Assembly: GCA_963707635.1 (NCBI GenBank)
Contig: OY970173.1
Span: 1,888,001 to 1,952,000 of the forward strand
DNA from: Candidatus Latescibacterota bacterium
GTDB taxonomy: Bacteria; Krumholzibacteriota; Krumholzibacteriia; WVZY01; JAKEHA01
Length of the DNA stretch: 64,000 nucleotides
Reading direction: 5' to 3'
A program made the position numbers and the translations under genes. Within the stretch, counting starts at the first letter, position 1. Each line of letters begins with the position of its first letter. The notes below the pieces were generated by a model, which was given only the letters and a program-made list of their open reading frames with translations, did not search any database and was not told where the DNA came from. Positions 3 through 12,600 of this stretch are shown here, one piece after another.

Positions 3-1256
3 ATCGGCACCGACGGTCGCATCGAATCGTACGTCCTGAGCGACTTCGCGGACTACATCTGCGGCGACGCGCGCCTCGCCTACACGACGCACAGCCCGTA
101 CAACAACTCCGGGGTGCCGTATCCATGGAGCGACTGGTCGTGGGGACTGACCGGCGCCAACCCGGTGGAGCGCGCGCTGCGGCGCGTGGTCGTGGTGCGC
201 GGCGTCGGGTCGATCCCGTACTTCGTCATTCAGGACGATATCAAGAAGGACAGCGACGAACACCACTACGAATGGTGCATGCACGTCCCGGTCGACGCGA
301 GCGTGGATGTGGGCGGCAACGGCCCGATCCGGGTGTCCCGGAACGCGACGGCCCTCGACCTGCACGCGCTGCGTCCCCAGCGGGCGCAGCTCGCCGCGTC
401 CGTGTCGATCTTCGACAATCAGGGCGAAGATCCCAATTCACGCCTGGTGAAGCTCGGCACCGACATGGTGGAGCCGCGTTTCACGCTGCTGCTCGTCCCG
501 CGACGCGTGAGCGACGCGGAGCCGGCTGTGTCGTCGGCCGCCGGACCCGCCGGGACGACGACGACCGTCGCGTGGGCGAACGGAATGACGGACTATGTAT
601 TCTCGCGAACCACGGTGGTGGATCCTCCGCTGCCGGTGGTGGATCCGTTGCTGCAAGGGACGGCGTGTACGGGCTCGCTGGCAACCGACGCGATTCTCGG
701 CGTGGCACGGACGGCGGGCGGCGAGGTGCGCGGCTACGTGCTCGCGGACGGGACGGTGCTCGTGTGCGCATCCCGGGTGCTGGTGAGTATCGATGACGGT
801 CCGGCCACCGTCGTCTACGACGGATCCAGCGTTCACATCAGCCGGGCGAACGCGCGCTTTCGTATCTTCGCCCAGGGCGTGTCAGGCGTCCTGTATCGGG
901 GCAACCCCTTGCCCACCGTTCTCGAGGGTGAGTATCTGACCAACGCGCTCTACACCGGCGTCCGGCCGGCGCCTGCCGAACCCGACCTCGATTTGCGCGC
1001 GTTCCCGAACCCCTTCAATCCGTCGGTCCGGATCACCTTCGTCGTTCCCTGGCGAAGCGAGGTTCGCGCGGAGATCCACGACGCGGCCGGCCGCCGCGTG
1101 GTGGTGCTCGCCGCGCGCGAGATGGATGCCGGCGCGCACGCGCTGGAGTGGAATGGACGGGATGAAAAGGGTGGCGACGCCGCCAGCGGGGTGTACTTCC
1201 TGCGCGTGCAGTCGGGTTCGGCGGCCCGATCGATCAAGCTCGTGCTTCTGCGCTGA
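3..1256 (+). CDS. Secreted protein, 5'-partial: heparinase II/III-like C-terminal region plus FlgD-Ig/T9SS-like C-terminal sorting domain
   Basis: The frame is open from the window edge (IGTDGRIESYVLSDFADYICGDARLAY...). YFVIQDDI...YEWCMH resembles the heparinase II/III beta-sandwich. The C-terminus AFPNPFNPSVRITF...WNGRDEKGGDAASGVYFLRV...KLVLLR is a FlgD-Ig/CTD signature. Confidence 0.65.
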   Translation: MGTDGRIESYVLSDFADYICGDARLAYTTHSPYNNSGVPYPWSDWSWGLTGANPVERALRRVVVVRGVGSIPYFVIQDDIKKDSDEHHYEWCMHVPVDASVDVGGNGPIRVSRNATALDLHALRPQRAQLAASVSIFDNQGEDPNSRLVKLGTDMVEPRFTLLLVPRRVSDAEPAVSSAAGPAGTTTTVAWANGMTDYVFSRTTVVDPPLPVVDPLLQGTACTGSLATDAILGVARTAGGEVRGYVLADGTVLVCASRVLVSIDDGPATVVYDGSSVHISRANARFRIFAQGVSGVLYRGNPLPTVLEGEYLTNALYTGVRPAPAEPDLDLRAFPNPFNPSVRITFVVPWRSEVRAEIHDAAGRRVVVLAAREMDAGAHALEWNGRDEKGGDAASGVYFLRVQSGSAARSIKLVLLR

Positions 1257-2502
1257 GGTCCCCGATGATCGGTTCGAGGCGCGCGAACGCGGCGCGCAGC
1301 GCGCCCTCCACCCGTTCCGGGGTGTCCGAGCGCGCGAAAATGAACGCCACGTAGAGGAAGCCGTCGGGCAGCGGTGTCAGGTGCTGCCCGGGCCGCGCAC
1401 TCACCACCACCTCCTCGACGCCGGGAACCTCGGCGGCAGCGCTCGCCCCACGCAGCGATTCGAATCGCCCCGCGCGCGGGGCCTGGATCATCCAGACGCC
1501 GGCGGCGCGGGGCTCGCGCGGCGGGATCTGCGCGACGAGTCCGAGGGCGTGCTGGAGGATGACATCTTCGAGCGAGCGCCCGTCGGCAAAGCGCACCACC
1601 CGCGAGCACAGCCCTCCGATCGATCGCGCGTGCACCTCGATCGGGATCACCGCCCCGGCGCTCCCGCGGAGCTCGACGTGCACGGGGCCGCTCACGAGCC
1701 CCACCGCGCGCACGGCGGCTCCGGAGGTCTCCACGATCCGCTGCTGCACCTCCGGCGAGAGGCGCGAGGGCGTCACGTACATCGTCTCCGGGAAGACGGG
1801 TCCCTCGAGCGGGTCCGGCTTGTCGAAGATGGCGATCACGTCGAGGCGGCCGCCGGTCACGATGCCTTCCACCGCCACTTCCCAGCCGTCCACGTACGAT
1901 TCCGCGAGGACGTGACCGCGCGCGAGCACGTCGTGCGCAGACGGCGACGAACGCACCAGCCGGGCGAGTCGTTCGAACGCGGGCGCGAACGCCTTTGCGT
2001 CGTCGACTCTGAACACGCCCCGGCTCGCCGACATGGCGAGCGGCTTGAGCACGGCGGGATAGCCGACCGCGCGCGCCAGTTCGCGCTCGAGCGCATCCAC
2101 GGGCGCTTGCAGCGAAAGCAGCGCGTACTTCGGTATCGGAATGCCAGCCGCCCGCATCCGCTCGCGCGCGAGGTACTTGTTGACGGTAGCGCGCACCGCG
2201 TCGACGGGGTTATGCGGCAGGCCGAGCGCCTCGGCGATCGCGGCGGCCGCGAGCACGGAACGGTCGTCGACCGCCACCACCGCGTGCACCGGCGTCTTGC
2301 GCGCGAAACGCCGCGCCCGGGCGGCGGCGCCGATGGGGTCGTCGAAGTCGAACGACGGCAGCTCGACCGGGTGCAGGTGCGAGAGCGAGCTTTCCGTTTC
2401 CGAGGCGAGGCTCAAGTCCACCGGGAGGCGCCGCGCGGCGCGCACGAACGCGTCGGCGCGATAGGTGGACGTGGGAACGAGCAGGAGCAGGCGGGGCTTC
2501 AT
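1234..2502 (-). CDS. ATP-grasp domain protein (L-amino-acid-ligase-like)
   Basis: Motifs NKYLARE, GYPAVLKPLAMSASRGVFRV, LAESYVDGWEVAVEG and IEVHARSIGG, plus a C-terminal LAL-type extension. ATG at 2502 (MKPRLLLL). Confidence 0.85.
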   Translation of the reverse strand: MKPRLLLLVPTSTYRADAFVRAARRLPVDLSLASETESSLSHLHPVELPSFDFDDPIGAAARARRFARKTPVHAVVAVDDRSVLAAAAIAEALGLPHNPVDAVRATVNKYLARERMRAAGIPIPKYALLSLQAPVDALERELARAVGYPAVLKPLAMSASRGVFRVDDAKAFAPAFERLARLVRSSPSAHDVLARGHVLAESYVDGWEVAVEGIVTGGRLDVIAIFDKPDPLEGPVFPETMYVTPSRLSPEVQQRIVETSGAAVRAVGLVSGPVHVELRGSAGAVIPIEVHARSIGGLCSRVVRFADGRSLEDVILQHALGLVAQIPPREPRAAGVWMIQAPRAGRFESLRGASAAAEVPGVEEVVVSARPGQHLTPLPDGFLYVAFIFARSDTPERVEGALRAAFARLEPIIGDLSAEARA

Positions 2503-2524
2503 GGCGGCGGCGGCGCGCCGGCGT

Positions 2525-3160
2525 CTACTTGGACGACGGCGCGTAATACGGATTGCGGCCGGCGGCGTGATCGGTGGTATCGAGGATTTCGCCGACCTCG
2601 GGGACCTCTTCGCGGATGGTGCGCTCGACACCGTACTTGAGGGTGACGCTCACCATGCCGCACCCCTGGCACCCGCCGCCGAACTCGAGAAACACGGTGT
2701 TGCCGGTGACTTCGAGCAGGCTCACCACGCCGCCGTGGGCGGCGACCGCCGGATTGATGACGCCGTCGAGCACCTGCTGGACGCGCCGCTTCACTTCTTC
2801 AGGTGGAAGTTGCGTCTCCGTCACCGCCGGCGAAATCGGATCGGCACCCGTGGCGAGGGCGTCGCGGATGGCCGTGCCCACCGCCGGGATCTTGTCGTCC
2901 CAGGTCGAGTCGCCCACCAGCGTCAGCCGCAGGGTGTCGTGGTTGACGAGGATCTCGGCGATGCCCTCGATGGCGAACAGCCCGTCGACCAGTGGCGACC
3001 CGTGCGAATGCTCGCGCTCGCCGAAATACGCCGAGTGGTTGGGGTAGAGCGGCTCGCTCACCGTGAAGGTGCACTGCTCGGGGTGCGCCATCGACGGGGT
3101 CGCGGTGATCCGCACCGATCGTCCCTGCGGGAGCTCGAAATTCAGGCTGACTTCATCCAT
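2525..3160 (-). CDS. Nfu/NifU-family Fe-S cluster carrier (Nfu N-terminal scaffold plus NifU C domain)
   Basis: INPAVAAHGGVV...FGGGCQGCG...TLKYGVE...DTTDHAAGRNPYY, with an N-terminal SPLVDGLFAIEGI scaffold motif. Confidence 0.9.
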   Translation of the reverse strand: MDEVSLNFELPQGRSVRITATPSMAHPEQCTFTVSEPLYPNHSAYFGEREHSHGSPLVDGLFAIEGIAEILVNHDTLRLTLVGDSTWDDKIPAVGTAIRDALATGADPISPAVTETQLPPEEVKRRVQQVLDGVINPAVAAHGGVVSLLEVTGNTVFLEFGGGCQGCGMVSVTLKYGVERTIREEVPEVGEILDTTDHAAGRNPYYAPSSK

Positions 3161-3169
3161 GGCACTTCG

Positions 3170-3198
3170 ATGATAGGTGAGGCGCTGGCCGGGCGCAA
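3170..3198 (-). promoter_or_regulatory. Putative sigma70 promoter of the nfu gene
   Basis: TTGCGC-N17-TATCAT, 9 nt upstream of the ATG at 3160. Confidence 0.45.
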
Positions 3199-3212
3199 GC
3201 GTCGATGCCGGG

Positions 3213-4649
3213 TCACACGCCCGCGCGTTCGAGAGAGCCAAACTGGCTCTCGGTGGGTTCGGCTCAGCAGAACCAGTCCTCGGTGAGGCGCGGCGATGGC
3301 CCCGCCGGCTGCGGCACGGCGAGCGCGGCGCGGCCGGGCGCGACCACCGCATGCACGCGCGCAAACGCCTCCTCGGCGGGCCAGTGGCCCGCCGCCGCGT
3401 CGGCGGCGACGCGAGCAAGTTCGTGCTGCAGACGATCCATCCCGGGATCGGGATGGCGCCAGCGATAGGAGAGCGTCTCGGGGTCGAAGGGGCCGAGGTG
3501 TTCACGCATGGGCTCGTGGCGCAACAGCAGGGAGCCCTCCGGGACGAGCAGGCGGATCGAGTACTGCACCGGGTCGACCCGACCGACGAGTCCCTCCCCG
3601 GCGACGATGTCCAGGAGCTCGCCGAGACTCGCGCGTGTCTCCCAGGGCGTGAATGGTACCAGCGAGGGCCGCAGCGCGATACCGAGGCCGCCGACGAAAC
3701 GAATCACCTCCAGCGCCTGCGCGCGGGTGTGACCCTTGTCCAGGTGTGTCAGCACCTCGTCGTTGAACGATTCCACCGCCGATACCATGAACAGGTTGCC
3801 CAGGTCGCGGAGTTCTCTGACGGCCTCGCGATGACGAAAGAGGTGTTCGATCTTGGCGGTGTAGTCGAACGTCACGCCGGCGAAGCGCCGGTGCAGCTCA
3901 CGCGCCACGCGCAGCGCGTGGGTGGGGCCGTTCAAGAAGTCCGCGTCGGCGAAGGTGACGTGCCGCGCACCTCTGGCGACGACGCCGGCCACGTCGTCGA
4001 GGACGCGCGCGACCGGGATGGCGTAGAAAGAGCCGGCGTACGCGGCCGGAAGCGGACAGTGACGGCAGAGGTGCTTGCAACCGCGCGTCGTCTGTACGTA
4101 TCCCACCGGGCTGCGCGCGCCGCCGGAGTCGAGCATCACGTAGCGGTCGTGCCGGGTGAGACCCGGCCGATGCGGGGTGAGGTCGAGCGAGCGCGCAGCA
4201 GGCGCAGGCGACGGCGGCACGACCGATCGCGGGTGGGAAGCGTCGAGTGTCGCGCGGGCGAGCTCGAGGAGAGATGCCTCGCACTCCGCACCCAGACAGC
4301 TGTCCGCGTGGGCCGGAACCAGATGACGCGCATTCAATCCCGCGTAGAGTCCGTAGAAACAGATGTGGGCGTTGGGATTCAAGTCGCGCACGCGTGCGGC
4401 CACACGCACCCCCAGTCGCAGCGCGGTGTGCATCGGGGTCGAGATCGCCACCAGCTGCGCGCCGGCAATCGCCGCCGTGTCGAACTCATCCACCGCCACG
4501 TCCATCGTGCGCGGGACGATGCCCGCGCGGGCGAGCACTCCCGCGGGAACGGCGATGCCCAGCGGCTCGTGGCCGAGCTCGTAGCACGAAACCAGTACGA
4601 CGCGGCCGTCGGTGGCTTCGCGGGGGGATGATACCGGCGCGGACTGCAC
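3213..4649 (-). CDS. CUAEP-tail radical SAM selenoprotein (B12-binding-like N domain; Sec at UGA 3264-3266)
   Basis: CxxxCxxC motif (TRGCKHLCRHC). The ORF track stops at ...LTEDWFC, but read-through gives WFC-U-AEPTESQFGSLERAGV* (stop 3213-3215), matching the CUAEP/CCAEP tail. A hairpin follows the UGA. Start at GTG 4649 is uncertain. Confidence 0.88.
3233..3251 (-). promoter_or_regulatory. Bacterial SECIS-like hairpin
   Basis: mRNA GAGAGCCA-GUU-UGGCUCUC is a perfect 8-bp stem with a G-starting loop, beginning 12 nt after the in-frame UGA. Confidence 0.75.
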
Positions 4650-4800
4650 GCGACGGAGTATAATGACACCGGAGCCAGGTATGCAACGAGCCCGGCTCCG
4701 GTGGCGAACGCGCGTGAAGTCGCCGCCTTGCCGGTTTCCGGCGCGGGCGCCGCACCCATCGTGTATACTCCAGTCGGGTTCGCAAACGCGGGAGGTAGGG

Positions 4801-6849
4801 ATGGCCACAGAGGAGATTCACCGCATGCAGCCGGCGCGACTGCGGACCGGCATCACGCTGGAGCAACTCCCCACGTCAGAATCGTCGTCGTCCGGGATCG
4901 ACAGCCGGCGTGTCATTCGCGGCACCGCATTGATCTTCTGGGACCCGAAACGTCCCGGCCACAAACTCGACGCGATCGACACGGACCAGATCACGCCGGC
5001 CAAAGACTGTGTATCCGAGAGCCTCGATGCGCTCGACAAGCGGTGGAAGGAGGGCGCGTTTCGCTTCCTGATGCCGGACTTTCGCGCGCGCGTGCACCGG
5101 GGCGAGACGTTCCTCGTCGCCGGCGATCGGTTTGCGATCGGCTCCTCGCGCGAGATGAGCCCGGCGGGATTGCGTGCCATCGCGGAGGAAGACGGGCGCG
5201 AGATGGTGATCGTCTGCGGCCACAACATGGGCGACATTTTCCGCCGCAATGCGCTCAACCTGGGGCTCGAGGTGGTGCAGGCCCCCGAGGCGGTGGTGGA
5301 CGCGCGCGACGGAGACGAGTTTTCCTACGAACCGGCGACGCGCCGGCTGGTGAACGAGTCGCAGGGCCGGCAATACACCCCGGTCGCGCTGACGCCCAAA
5401 GAGGACGAGATTCGGAGCACCGGGGGCATCTTCGCCCTGGGCCGGCGCGAGTTTCAAGACTCCGCCCGGAGCACTCCGCGGGCAGAGTGGCCGGACCCGG
5501 AGACCGCGCGCGGACTCACGACCACCGAACAGATCGTGTGGGCGCACCGCGTCGACCGGCAGGCGCGGGTCGAACCGGGGCGAACGCTCCGCGTCTACGC
5601 CGACCTCCTCCCGGCGTCCGACGGCACTGCACCCTTTGCAATCCATACCTTCAATCAGATCACGGGAGGAAACACCATCTTCCCGCGCCAGGCGGCGATC
5701 GCGAACGACCATTTCGTGTTCACCGGTGCCGACGCCGACGACAAGCAGACGGGGATCGGGCGCGAGTTCGCCAGGCAGCACGGCATCGAGAAGCCGTACT
5801 ACGCGACGCCGGGCGACGGCATCTTTCATTTCTACTTTCCCGAGCAGGGGCTGATCGTGCCCGGGCAGTTCATCCCCGGCGCGGACTCGCACAGCCGCGC
5901 GTACGGCGCGTACGGCGCGGTGGGAATCGGCGTCGGCTCGACGACGCTCGGGTTCGGATGGGCCACGGGGTATATCTACTTCACGCCGGCGCGCTCGCGC
6001 CGGGTGGTGTTCACCGGCAAGTTGCAGCCGTGGGTGTCGGGCAAAGACGTCGTGCTCAAGCTGCTCGAGCGATGGGGAGCGAAGCAGTCGCAGGGAATGT
6101 CGGTCGAGCTCGTGGACGCGAATCGACAACTGCCGGTCGCGTACCGCAACACCATCGCCAACATGATGGCCGAGGCGGAGGCGATGAACGGGATTTTCGC
6201 CTGCGACGAGGTGACCCTCGCCTGGTACGCCGCCAAGGGCATGAAGGAGCTCCCGTATCCGCCCCTCGCGCCCGGCGCCAACGCCTGTTTCGAAATCGAC
6301 GAGACCCTCGACCTGTCGGACGTGGTCCCGATGGTCGCGAAACCGTTCAGCCCGGGAAACGCGTTCCCGGCCGAGGACGTCGCCCGCGAGCGCCTTACCT
6401 TCGACAAGGCGTTCATCGGGTCGTGCACCAACGGCAGCTATGACGACCTGCTGCAGGCGGCGATGGTGGTCAGGCGCGCGCGCACGCTCGGGTTCGAACG
6501 GTCGAGCACGCCGTTCGTCGTGTTTCCGGGCTCGGGGGGTGTGAAGAAACTGATCGAACGGCCCGACCCGCGCCTGGGTGGGGAATCGGTGGCGAACGTG
6601 CTGCGGTCGGTCGGCGCGGAAATCCGGGCGTCGTGGTGCGGCCCGTGCTTCGGCCAGGGACCGGATGCGCTCAAACGCGGCGAGCGCGCGATCACGTCCT
6701 TCAACCGCAACTGGCAGAACCGCATGGGCGTCGGCGGGGAGGGCTACCTCGCCAGTCCGGCGGTGGTCGCCGCGTCCGCGCTGCTGGGCTACATGGCCGG
6801 ACCGGGAGAGCTCGGGATCGAATGGAACGCGGAGGCGTTCGCGCTCTAA
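4801..6849 (+). CDS. Aconitase-family hydro-lyase: fused LeuD-like swivel (N-terminal) and LeuC-like Fe-S domain
   Basis: N part has [16 protein letters not shown] and [12 protein letters not shown] part has [30 protein letters not shown] and [20 protein letters not shown] before ATG 4801. Confidence 0.85.
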
Positions 6850-10920: not shown

Positions 10921-12600
10921 ATGTGGATCGTGCCGTTCAACAGGGTCCGAAAGAGTTTCTCCGCCAAGATCATCCTGCTGGTCGCGCTGAGCGTGATCGT
11001 CACGTCCTTCGTGGTCGGGCTGGCGACGACGCATAGCACCGGCCAGTTCCTCACCGAGCGGATGAAGGATCGCTTCCCGTCGACGCTCACCATCACCAGC
11101 ACACGACTGCGGCTCTGGCACGACCGCCAAATGCGCGAGCTCGCCCGGCTGGGCACGTCACGCACCCTGCAGGAGAGCCTGTTGCGCATCGCGAGCGTGG
11201 GCGACCCGAAAGCGAGCGCGCGCTACCGGGCCGACGCGGGGCAATTTCTCAAACTCGTCCATCCCAGCTACACCGTGTTCGAGGACCTGCTGGTGCTCGA
11301 CGCGCACGGAAAGCTCATTGCCTCCGCCGCGGGTGCGAGCGCCGCGGATGCGGCGGAAGCATGGGCCCAGCTCGACGAGCTGGGGCTGGAGCCCGGAGTT
11401 TCTCCTCCCATGCCGGGTACCCACGGCTTCCACCAGTGGTTCTACGTCCCTGCCGCCGATTCCACCCGCCTGACGGAAAAGCACCCGTGGATGGTGGCGC
11501 GCGTCAACCTGGCAACGATGAGCGACATTCTCGGTGAGGTCAAACTCGGCGACGGTGGAGACCTGTACCTGCTCGAGGGACAAGGACGGTTTCTGACCGA
11601 ACCTCGCCTGGCGACCGCGTGGCTGGTGGGCACGGAGGGCATGCAGGTGCCCACGCGTCAGACCGGGCCCGTGGTGGTGGAACGCCGCAAGAGCTACGGC
11701 GGGCGCGAGGTCTTTCACAGCAAGATCCATTTCGAAGAGCTTGGGTGGTGGCTGGTCTACGAAGAGGACTACAGCACCGCGATGGCGCCCGTGCTCGAGG
11801 CGCAGCGCCGCATCTGGGTATCCGTGCTCGTGGTCGGGGCGATGGCGATCCTCGCCGCGCTGCGCATCGCCCAGTCCATTCTCAAGCCGATCAAGGGGCT
11901 GGCGGTCGGTGCCAGCCGCATCAACGAGGGGCTCGTGGGCGTCAAGATTCCAAAGGGCGCCGACGACGAGATCGGCATGATGATCGACACGTTCAACGAG
12001 ATGGCGACCAAGATCTCGCTGTCGCAGGCCGAGCTCCAGTATAAGAACAAGATGCTGAATTCATCGAACGAGCGCCTGCAGGACATGAATGACCAGCTGG
12101 AAAAACTCTCGGTCACCGACGGGCTGACCGGCCTGTTCAATCATCGCCACTTCTGGAATCTCCTGAACACGGAGCTGACGCGTGTCAACCTGCACCAGGG
12201 ACACCTGGCCCTGGTGCTGCTCGATCTCGACGACTTCAAGAAGGTGAACGACAAGTTCGGTCATTCCGTGGGGGATCTGCTCCTGCAGACAGTGGGGAAC
12301 GTGTTGAGCGATACGGTGCGCGACACCGACATCGTGGCGCGTTACGGCGGCGAGGAGTTCGGCGTCCTCCTGCCGGACACCGACGAGAGCGGCGTCCAGC
12401 AGGTCGCCGAGAAGATACGCGCCTCCATCGAGGCGATCCGCTTCAGCATTCCCGACACCGACATCGTGCTCAAGGTGACCGTGAGCATCGGCGTGTCGGT
12501 GTTCCGCGGCAACCGCCGCGAGTTCTTCAACGCGGCCGACCGTGCGCTGTACAAGTCGAAAGCCGCCGGCAAGAACTGCGTCCACTACGCGCTCACGTAG
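10921..12600 (+). CDS. Membrane diguanylate cyclase (TM-Cache-TM-HAMP-GGDEF)
   Basis: Two TM helices, a HAMP domain (DDEIGMMIDTFNEMA), TDGLTGLFN, an RDTD I-site and RYGGEEF. Confidence 0.92.
   Translation: MWIVPFNRVRKSFSAKIILLVALSVIVTSFVVGLATTHSTGQFLTERMKDRFPSTLTITSTRLRLWHDRQMRELARLGTSRTLQESLLRIASVGDPKASARYRADAGQFLKLVHPSYTVFEDLLVLDAHGKLIASAAGASAADAAEAWAQLDELGLEPGVSPPMPGTHGFHQWFYVPAADSTRLTEKHPWMVARVNLATMSDILGEVKLGDGGDLYLLEGQGRFLTEPRLATAWLVGTEGMQVPTRQTGPVVVERRKSYGGREVFHSKIHFEELGWWLVYEEDYSTAMAPVLEAQRRIWVSVLVVGAMAILAALRIAQSILKPIKGLAVGASRINEGLVGVKIPKGADDEIGMMIDTFNEMATKISLSQAELQYKNKMLNSSNERLQDMNDQLEKLSVTDGLTGLFNHRHFWNLLNTELTRVNLHQGHLALVLLDLDDFKKVNDKFGHSVGDLLLQTVGNVLSDTVRDTDIVARYGGEEFGVLLPDTDESGVQQVAEKIRASIEAIRFSIPDTDIVLKVTVSIGVSVFRGNRREFFNAADRALYKSKAAGKNCVHYALT

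Follow-up and report, generated by a model that had tools for sequence, protein, structure and literature searches.

A CUAEP-type radical SAM selenoprotein and an ATP-grasp ligase form a widespread two-enzyme module with an iron-sulfur gene context

Introduction

ArsL is a radical S-adenosylmethionine (SAM) enzyme that, according to two preprints, splits SAM into methylthioadenosine (MTA) and an aminocarboxypropyl (ACP) group, forming an Fe-ACP species that is attacked by arsenic held in the tail of the protein (Yao et al. preprint; Serrano et al. preprint). The arsenic, as As(III), is held by three tail cysteines (Serrano et al. preprint). In the parts of the literature consulted, ArsL is the only one among radical SAM enzymes whose cluster motif is canonical that is reported to cleave SAM at the ACP bond. 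Here we describe a locus in Candidatus Latescibacterota (GenBank assembly GCA_963707635.1, contig OY970173.1, positions 1,888,001 to 1,952,000, a stretch of 64,000 nucleotides referred to below as the window), which encodes a radical SAM selenoprotein of a sister family of ArsL, an Nfu-type iron-sulfur (Fe-S) carrier and an ATP-grasp ligase.

The radical SAM protein belongs to the CUAEP/CCAEP family (NF040546), described in passages of Haft and Gwadz (bioRxiv 10.1101/2022.07.06.499078) as an uncharacterised selenoprotein with a Cys-Sec (CU) motif. Selenoprotein status of this family is thus already known. The term "ATP-grasp" has no match in that paper, and the passages mention neither a ligase nor an Fe-S carrier as a partner. 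Our literature searches, with most subscription journals outside their scope, found no description of a radical SAM–ligase module.

Results

The radical SAM enzyme is accompanied by an orthologous ligase

A preliminary description of the locus, made from the sequence alone, had assigned the third gene to the amino-acid-ligase type of ATP-grasp enzymes, and domain and fold comparisons bear this out. The protein contains ATPgrasp_N, ATP-grasp_4 and LAL_C2 domains, and its closest solved structure is the L-amino-acid ligase (LAL) BL00235 (3vot; E 1e-30, template modelling score 0.82). It scores under the cut-offs of the BacD and DdaF models, and only 33-35 bits with the RimK and LysX models. Peptide-bond formation by the ligase is very likely.

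To survey gene neighbourhoods, we used the best 80 of at least 593 confirmed matches to the radical SAM protein in GTDB. Ligase and Nfu genes recur beside the enzyme: 40 loci hold an orthologous ligase (43-64% identity) at most 10 kb away, 41 hold Nfu, and 34 hold both. The position of the ligase relative to the enzyme varies by lineage (upstream, downstream or convergent), with order and orientation shuffled. A ligase profile, with which orthologues score about 490-650 bits and other ligases at most 158 bits, located an orthologue at another site in 36 of the remaining 40 genomes (one of them partial), bringing the total to 76/80.

The association was also seen in phylum-wide samples. Among 301 Chloroflexota genomes, 80 contain both genes, 2 the enzyme only, 21 the ligase only and 198 neither, and the two genes are at most 10 kb apart in 52 of the 80 pairs. 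Two of the 21 ligase-only genomes hold enzyme fragments at contig ends, leaving about 19 lone ligases out of 101. Among 201 Acidobacteriota genomes, both genes occur in 30, the enzyme only in 1, the ligase only in 5 and neither in 165; four of the five ligase-only genomes were rechecked, and no enzyme orthologue was found in these. Of 41 relatives, 22 contain the enzyme (some as contig-end fragments) and 21 the ligase, all of them inside those 22. Two unpublished genomes contribute one count each, G343 with both genes (also one of 30 loci in the Fe-S neighbour counts below) and G403 with the ligase only. Homologous radical SAM genes thus keep the ATP-grasp gene in 76/80 GTDB, 80/82 Chloroflexota and 30/31 Acidobacteriota genomes, and the loss of this association that would have spoken against a joint pathway was not seen. 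The distances of enzyme and ligase are correlated (rho 0.86, 35 loci), a value that has no housekeeping control and was not used as evidence. We conclude that the radical SAM enzyme and the ligase constitute a real, widespread two-enzyme module with an Fe-S context.

In one protein (P0246) the ligase is fused to the radical SAM enzyme. This is a singleton; a protein search, which returned only the query, and a metagenome scan gave no second fusion. It may be a read-through of two adjacent genes, and is weak evidence. Together with P0241, P0245 and P0265 it forms a divergent clade of radical SAM proteins with a CCAAP tail. The selD gene is present in 6 of the 80 best GTDB loci, and adjoins the ligase gene in loci of the Blastocatellia type (L039, L056, L066, L070, L079).

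Iron-sulfur carrier genes surround both enzymes

The protein encoded between the two enzymes is an Nfu-type carrier, with a NifU domain (PF01106, 73.8 bits) and a CQGC motif. The preliminary description had cautioned that nfu has its own promoter and might be a housekeeping gene, and this caution was justified: Nfu is a housekeeping protein here because it is the sole Nfu of the genome, with no second paralogue, because an Nfu domain is present in 18 of the 19 relatives that lack the radical SAM enzyme, and because the gene has its own conserved -10 box. Nfu is therefore a general carrier co-located with the pathway and not a dedicated subunit.

In other lineages the place of the Nfu neighbour is taken by other Fe-S genes: IscA, YggX, CDGSH, SufU/SufT or an Rrf2 regulator. 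Of the 80 best GTDB loci, 56 have a gene for an Fe-S carrier (Nfu/NfuA, IscA, YggX or CDGSH) at most 3 kb from the enzyme. Such a gene is also at most 1.5 kb from the ligase in 19 of 30 loci where the ligase is separated, and at most 3 kb from lone Chloroflexota ligases in 18 of 20 cases. Of 30 Chloroflexota enzyme loci, 26 have YggX no more than 1.5 kb away, and NfuA adjoins three of four lone Acidobacteriota ligases. For comparison with these counts, the 3.2-Mb genome that carries the window has four other such Fe-S carrier sites.

Several further neighbours were noted. In Gemmatimonadales (L121, L123, L126, L127, L129, L131) a metE-nfu-ligase run stands apart from the radical SAM gene. A BrxA/BrxB bacilliredoxin gene follows the radical SAM gene in L050, and in a relative (G037; L227:6088-9157) the ligase, nfuA and a gene for the ergothioneine sulfoxide synthase EgtB are adjacent. 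A DUF169 gene stands beside the enzyme or the ligase in twelve loci (L035, L041, L046, L063, L072, L073, L075, L093, L101, L218, L219, L234) from several phyla, and some of the genomes concerned gave no ligase. It was rejected as a fourth core gene: 9 of the 80 best GTDB loci have it, and a search of this genome did not find it.

The radical SAM enzyme is a selenoprotein

The radical SAM gene starts with GTG and encodes the cluster motif CxxxCxxC as CKHLCRHC. Its reading frame apparently stops at WFC, at an in-frame TGA beyond which the tail continues as WFC-U-AEPTESQFGSLERAGV. The NF040546 profile scores 551.9 bits for the truncated and 566.4 bits for the read-through protein (cut-off 500), and the closest named homologues are from Candidatus Krumholzibacteria. 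An AlphaFold model (predicted local distance difference test score 93.5) has AprD4 as its top fold match.

Selenocysteine at the TGA, as suggested in the preliminary description, was confirmed by several lines of evidence. The genome encodes tRNA-Sec, selA, selB and selD. In the 80 best GTDB loci, the codon at this site is TGA in 70 and TGC in 5, and is not visible in 5. Across all loci available for this comparison (the unpublished genome G343 is one control row), 92 of 103 distinct UGA sequences have an intact 5-bp selenocysteine insertion sequence (SECIS) stem 14-19 nt past the codon, against 4 of 23 UGC/UGU controls. The stem shows compensatory changes, with G-C, A-T and C-G swaps on both sides. 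The family hairpin presumably fits the bacterial SECIS consensus. The hairpin of the window is by itself not significant (z -1.47; z -0.35 against synonymous shuffles).

Two other roles for the protein were rejected. Binding of cobalamin is unlikely, as the cobalamin domain PF02310 scores 23 bits, below its cut-off of 32.1, and according to passages of a review (PMC12931638) cobalamin is bound neither by ArsL homologues nor by AprD4. A LysW-like carrier role for the "TEDWFC" tail does not agree with a tail that is not terminal and a ligase that is not of the LysX type. Additional Cys-Cys pairs are present in the long tails of some CCAEP enzymes from Chloroflexota (L203, L204).

ArsL forms a sister family

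The preliminary description took ArsL as the best characterised relative. The relationship holds at the level of a sister clade, while identity with ArsL does not: the window protein scores 259.3 bits with the ArsL model NF040542, against a cut-off of 450. In two trees (FastTree and a quick IQ-TREE) of 64 proteins, comprising 46 CUAEP-type, 10 ArsL and 8 outgroup sequences, the CUAEP and ArsL proteins join against the 8 other B12-like radical SAM proteins with an SH support of 100, the outgroup branches being long. One CCAEP protein (P0205) is placed between the two groups. Alignment gave 46 columns conserved in both families, 24 of which are not conserved in the outgroup. By these sequence comparisons, ArsL is a sister family, and the window protein is not an ArsL.

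In line with the pathway outlined in the preliminary description, some true ArsL clusters also include a ligase: an amino-acid ligase is present in three of four ArsL loci inspected. These are LAL-type ATP-grasp genes in plasmid clusters encoding ArsL with an RCCLKC tail, in Alicyclobacillus, Priestia and Pantoea (L223:1430-2662, L224:1735-2958, L225:6566-7771), which also hold a CobW-like GTPase and a small gene that is either CMD-like or hypothetical. By sequence, the ligases of these clusters are a precedent for the window ligase and not its orthologues. Their presence suggests that such clusters produce an arsinothricin-containing dipeptide; a literature search on a ligase in ArsL clusters found no paper. 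A singleton JGI sequence (P0237) fuses an ArsN2-like acetyltransferase, ArsM and ArsL in one protein.

Gene organization of the locus

The three genes are co-oriented on the minus strand and tightly packed, with gaps of 52 and 22 bp as first described (Table 1); the 52-bp gap between the radical SAM gene and nfu presumes read-through of the UGA. A promoter scan gave no sites at its threshold, so both promoters in Table 1 rest on reading by eye and on conservation. Of 18 related loci examined, the nfu start was located in 15, and all 15 have a TAT(C/G/T)AT box 7-20 nt ahead of the ATG. The short distance of the upstream promoter from the GTG suggests that the radical SAM transcript is likely leaderless.

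Table 1. Features of the radical SAM–nfu–ligase locus, in window coordinates
Feature	Position	Strand	Details and basis
Radical SAM selenoprotein, CUAEP tail, NF040546	3213..4649	-	478 aa; ArsL sister family; profile, model, trees
In-frame UGA, selenocysteine of the Cys-Sec pair WFC-U-AEP	3264..3266	-	Codon survey and selenocysteine machinery
SECIS hairpin, 8-bp stem from 13 nt past the UGA, loop G	3233..3251	-	Stem conservation and compensatory pairs
Probable radical SAM promoter, TTGCAT-18-TATACT	4657..4686	-	7 nt ahead of GTG; read by eye
Probable internal promoter of nfu and ligase, TTGCGC-17-TATCAT	3170..3198	-	9 nt ahead of ATG
nfu, Nfu-type Fe-S carrier	2525..3160	-	211 aa; Nfu_N and NifU domains, CQGC; domain profiles
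L-amino-acid-ligase-type ATP-grasp enzyme	1234..2502	-	422 aa; invariant YR, FDKPDP, R-x-IGG-x-C; domains, fold, orthologue profile

Two genes on the plus strand flank the locus. Upstream of the radical SAM gene and divergent from it (window 4801-6849) is a gene for a fused small-plus-large subunit Fe-S dehydratase of the aconitase/LeuCD type, an arrangement that recurs in L032-L034. On the other side (window 3-1256), a gene for a large secreted protein with a FlgD-Ig/type IX secretion system-like sorting domain at its end converges on the ligase gene, its stop overlapping the end of that gene by 23 bp.

Discussion

We propose, with a probability of roughly 0.3, that the enzyme and the ligase make up a two-enzyme housekeeping pathway, in which an ACP group is transferred to sulfur or selenium and the product is then built into a dipeptide serving Fe-S upkeep. 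The enzyme would form an ArsL-type ACP species from SAM, and its Cys-Sec arm would present a soft nucleophile, S or Se, for the ACP group. The product would be a homocysteine-like amino acid, which the ligase would join into a dipeptide; this would stay intracellular and support Fe-S cluster traffic or repair. ACP chemistry of the enzyme is probable by analogy with ArsL, and, given such chemistry, the chance that sulfur or selenium is the acceptor falls a little below even. The reverse order of the two steps is nearly as likely. Sulfur or selenium is favoured over arsenic because the genes have Fe-S neighbours, because ars genes and exporters are absent, and because the ligase persists on its own. 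Lone ligases could be accommodated because a homocysteine-like substrate could also come from ordinary metabolism (compare the metE-nfu-ligase run of Gemmatimonadales).

A more specific and rather doubtful version of this pathway would have as its product a low-molecular-weight thiol or selenol not described before. This (seleno)homocysteine dipeptide, with a C-S or C-Se bond derived from the ACP group, would work alongside NfuA and YggX in Fe-S cluster traffic, much as glutathione does. It would be produced in a sizeable fraction of uncultured phyla, spanning Chloroflexota, Acidobacteriota, Methylomirabilota, Gemmatimonadota, Krumholzibacteriota, Planctomycetota, Myxococcota and Nitrospirota. 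We also considered whether the product replaces a missing thiol pathway, for which we found no support: in a small sample of five genomes, mshC and gshB were under cut-off in all five, and a BshC-like gene was present in some. Because BshC-like genes co-exist with the module, the product is not just a stand-in for an absent thiol.

Several observations weigh against the proposed pathway. The profile search did not find the ligase in four enzyme-bearing Planctomycetota metagenome-assembled genomes (MAGs), and in an independent set of 80 short metagenome loci the links were weaker, with the ligase seen in 20 and an Fe-S gene in 26 (12 and 13, respectively, among the 32 loci that extend 2 kb to either side). 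The genomes counted are related, so that the counts overstate independence, and MAGs are incomplete; the pattern recurs in three samples. Homocysteine production from SAM seems a wasteful route if selenium is not its purpose, and a BshC-like gene is present in three of the five genomes tested, including this one. The analogy with ArsL is also strained by an identity of only 27-33%, by the cluster motif (CxxxCxHC in CUAEP and CxxxCxYC in ArsL, with His for Tyr), by a longer linker of about 40 extra residues ahead of the CUAEP tail, and by the ligases of ArsL clusters, which are only 23-27% identical to the window ligase.

A slightly less likely alternative is that the ligase acts first, making a dipeptide from ordinary amino acids that is linked to the function of NfuA or YggX, with the radical SAM enzyme as an optional tailoring enzyme (by ACP or 5'-deoxyadenosine chemistry). 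This would account for the one-sided dependence, as the enzyme almost never occurs without the ligase and the ligase occurs without the enzyme in about 19/101 Chloroflexota and 5/35 Acidobacteriota; the persistence of the ligase also weakens the order of alkylation before ligation put forward in the preliminary description. Lone ligases retain their adjoining NfuA or YggX, and nfu and the ligase share a probable promoter of their own. However, the ArsL tail holds the atom to be alkylated and not a peptide, and some ligase-only cases are perhaps incomplete MAGs, as in the 2 of 21 with enzyme fragments.

The preliminary description favoured a metalloid substrate. If the tail bound As(III) or methylarsenite, the enzyme would make an arsinothricin-like amino acid, and the ligase would convert it to an arsenic dipeptide. 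The sister relationship with ArsL and the ligase in three ArsL clusters are in line with this, and two ligands could suit methylarsenite. An arsM gene lies about 45 kb away in the same genome; this ArsM was considered as a selenoprotein and rejected, since the gene ends normally. In one clade (L043 and 8 related loci, at about 11430-11680), the radical SAM gene faces a convergent gene for an ArsC-family (seleno)protein whose C-terminal part is NF041106-like, with iscA upstream. However, thirteen ars queries, which matched four of four ArsL loci as a positive control, gave no ars gene in the 80 best GTDB loci, with only weak partial methyltransferase matches in three, and one ArsR fragment in the 80 metagenome loci. 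One lone ligase locus had a partial methyltransferase match. An ArsB-like gene was present in only 2 of 40 Chloroflexota regions, and ArsM was rarer with the enzyme, in 36/82 enzyme-positive and 138/219 enzyme-negative Chloroflexota (44% vs 63%). No exporter, regulator or resistance gene is conserved nearby, the genes are single-copy and chromosomal, the tail offers two chalcogen ligands against the three Cys of ArsL, and lone ligases would serve no purpose if their substrate were an arsenic amino acid. An arsenic substrate is thus unlikely.

Somewhat less likely again, the pair would modify or repair an Fe-S carrier or another protein instead of making a free metabolite. NfuA/Nfu is the most constant neighbour of the ligase, even where the enzyme is absent, and no transporter or peptidase is conserved nearby. 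However, the neighbours have unrelated folds (Nfu, IscA, YggX, CDGSH, SufU/SufT), which fits a shared regulon better than a common substrate, and the ligase is of the LAL type that acts on free amino acids, with the low RimK/LysX scores given above.

The least probable alternative is a defence in which the Cys-Sec tail captures an Fe-S-poisoning soft metal (Hg, Cu, Te) that is then alkylated or chelated, since, although CU motifs are tied to heavy-metal handling in passages of Haft and Gwadz (bioRxiv 10.1101/2022.07.06.499078) and one CCAEP homologue (P0133) is fused to a MerB-like domain, this fusion is a singleton, no MerB-like gene occurs in 160 loci (80 best GTDB and 80 metagenome), and the neighbourhood has no conserved metal exporter or regulator.

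With its near-obligate ligase partner and its Fe-S gene context, what was an orphan family becomes a defined pair of enzymes with few candidate substrates. The sister family of ArsL is widespread (82/301 Chloroflexota and 31/201 Acidobacteriota sampled) and often a selenoprotein, and natural Cys-Cys forms in cultured hosts (Thermomicrobium-type Chloroflexota) avoid selenocysteine recoding. If the product were the thiol or selenol considered above, it would be a new core metabolite, and arsinothricin synthesis would have branched off from this housekeeping chemistry as a specialised form. If it were an arsenic compound, organoarsenic chemistry would be much wider than known.

Comparison with known systems

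The window protein is a member of the NF040546 CUAEP/CCAEP family with a CU tail, and shows no sequence difference from that family. The ligase shares its three Pfam domains and fold with BL00235 (3vot), which favours Met or Leu at the N-terminus, and with BacD/YwfE and RizA. It differs from these in its sequence (about 25-30% identity), in its distinct invariant motifs YR, DKPDP and GGxC, and in its location outside any secreted-antibiotic cluster and linkage to Fe-S carriers.

Synthesis by a radical SAM enzyme together with an L-amino acid ligase is not known for any thiol. Low-molecular-weight thiols overlap functionally with Nfu/SufA, according to passages of one paper (PMC8593673); in a comparison with thiols such as glutathione and bacillithiol, the carriers NfuA/Nfu, IscA and YggX are the conserved neighbours here.

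With ArsL, the CUAEP enzymes share the B12-like N-terminal domain and radical SAM barrel, a vicinal chalcogen pair at the C-terminus and, in some ArsL clusters, an accompanying amino-acid ligase. The ArsL tail (RCCLKC, CCxxC) has three As-binding Cys, whereas the window tail has Cys-Sec only (CU). The arsM, arsQ/major facilitator superfamily, arsN and arsR genes that surround ArsL are missing around CUAEP enzyme loci. Finally, CUAEP genes occur as single chromosomal copies in soil, sediment and marine phyla, whereas ArsL is found in ars islands on plasmids.

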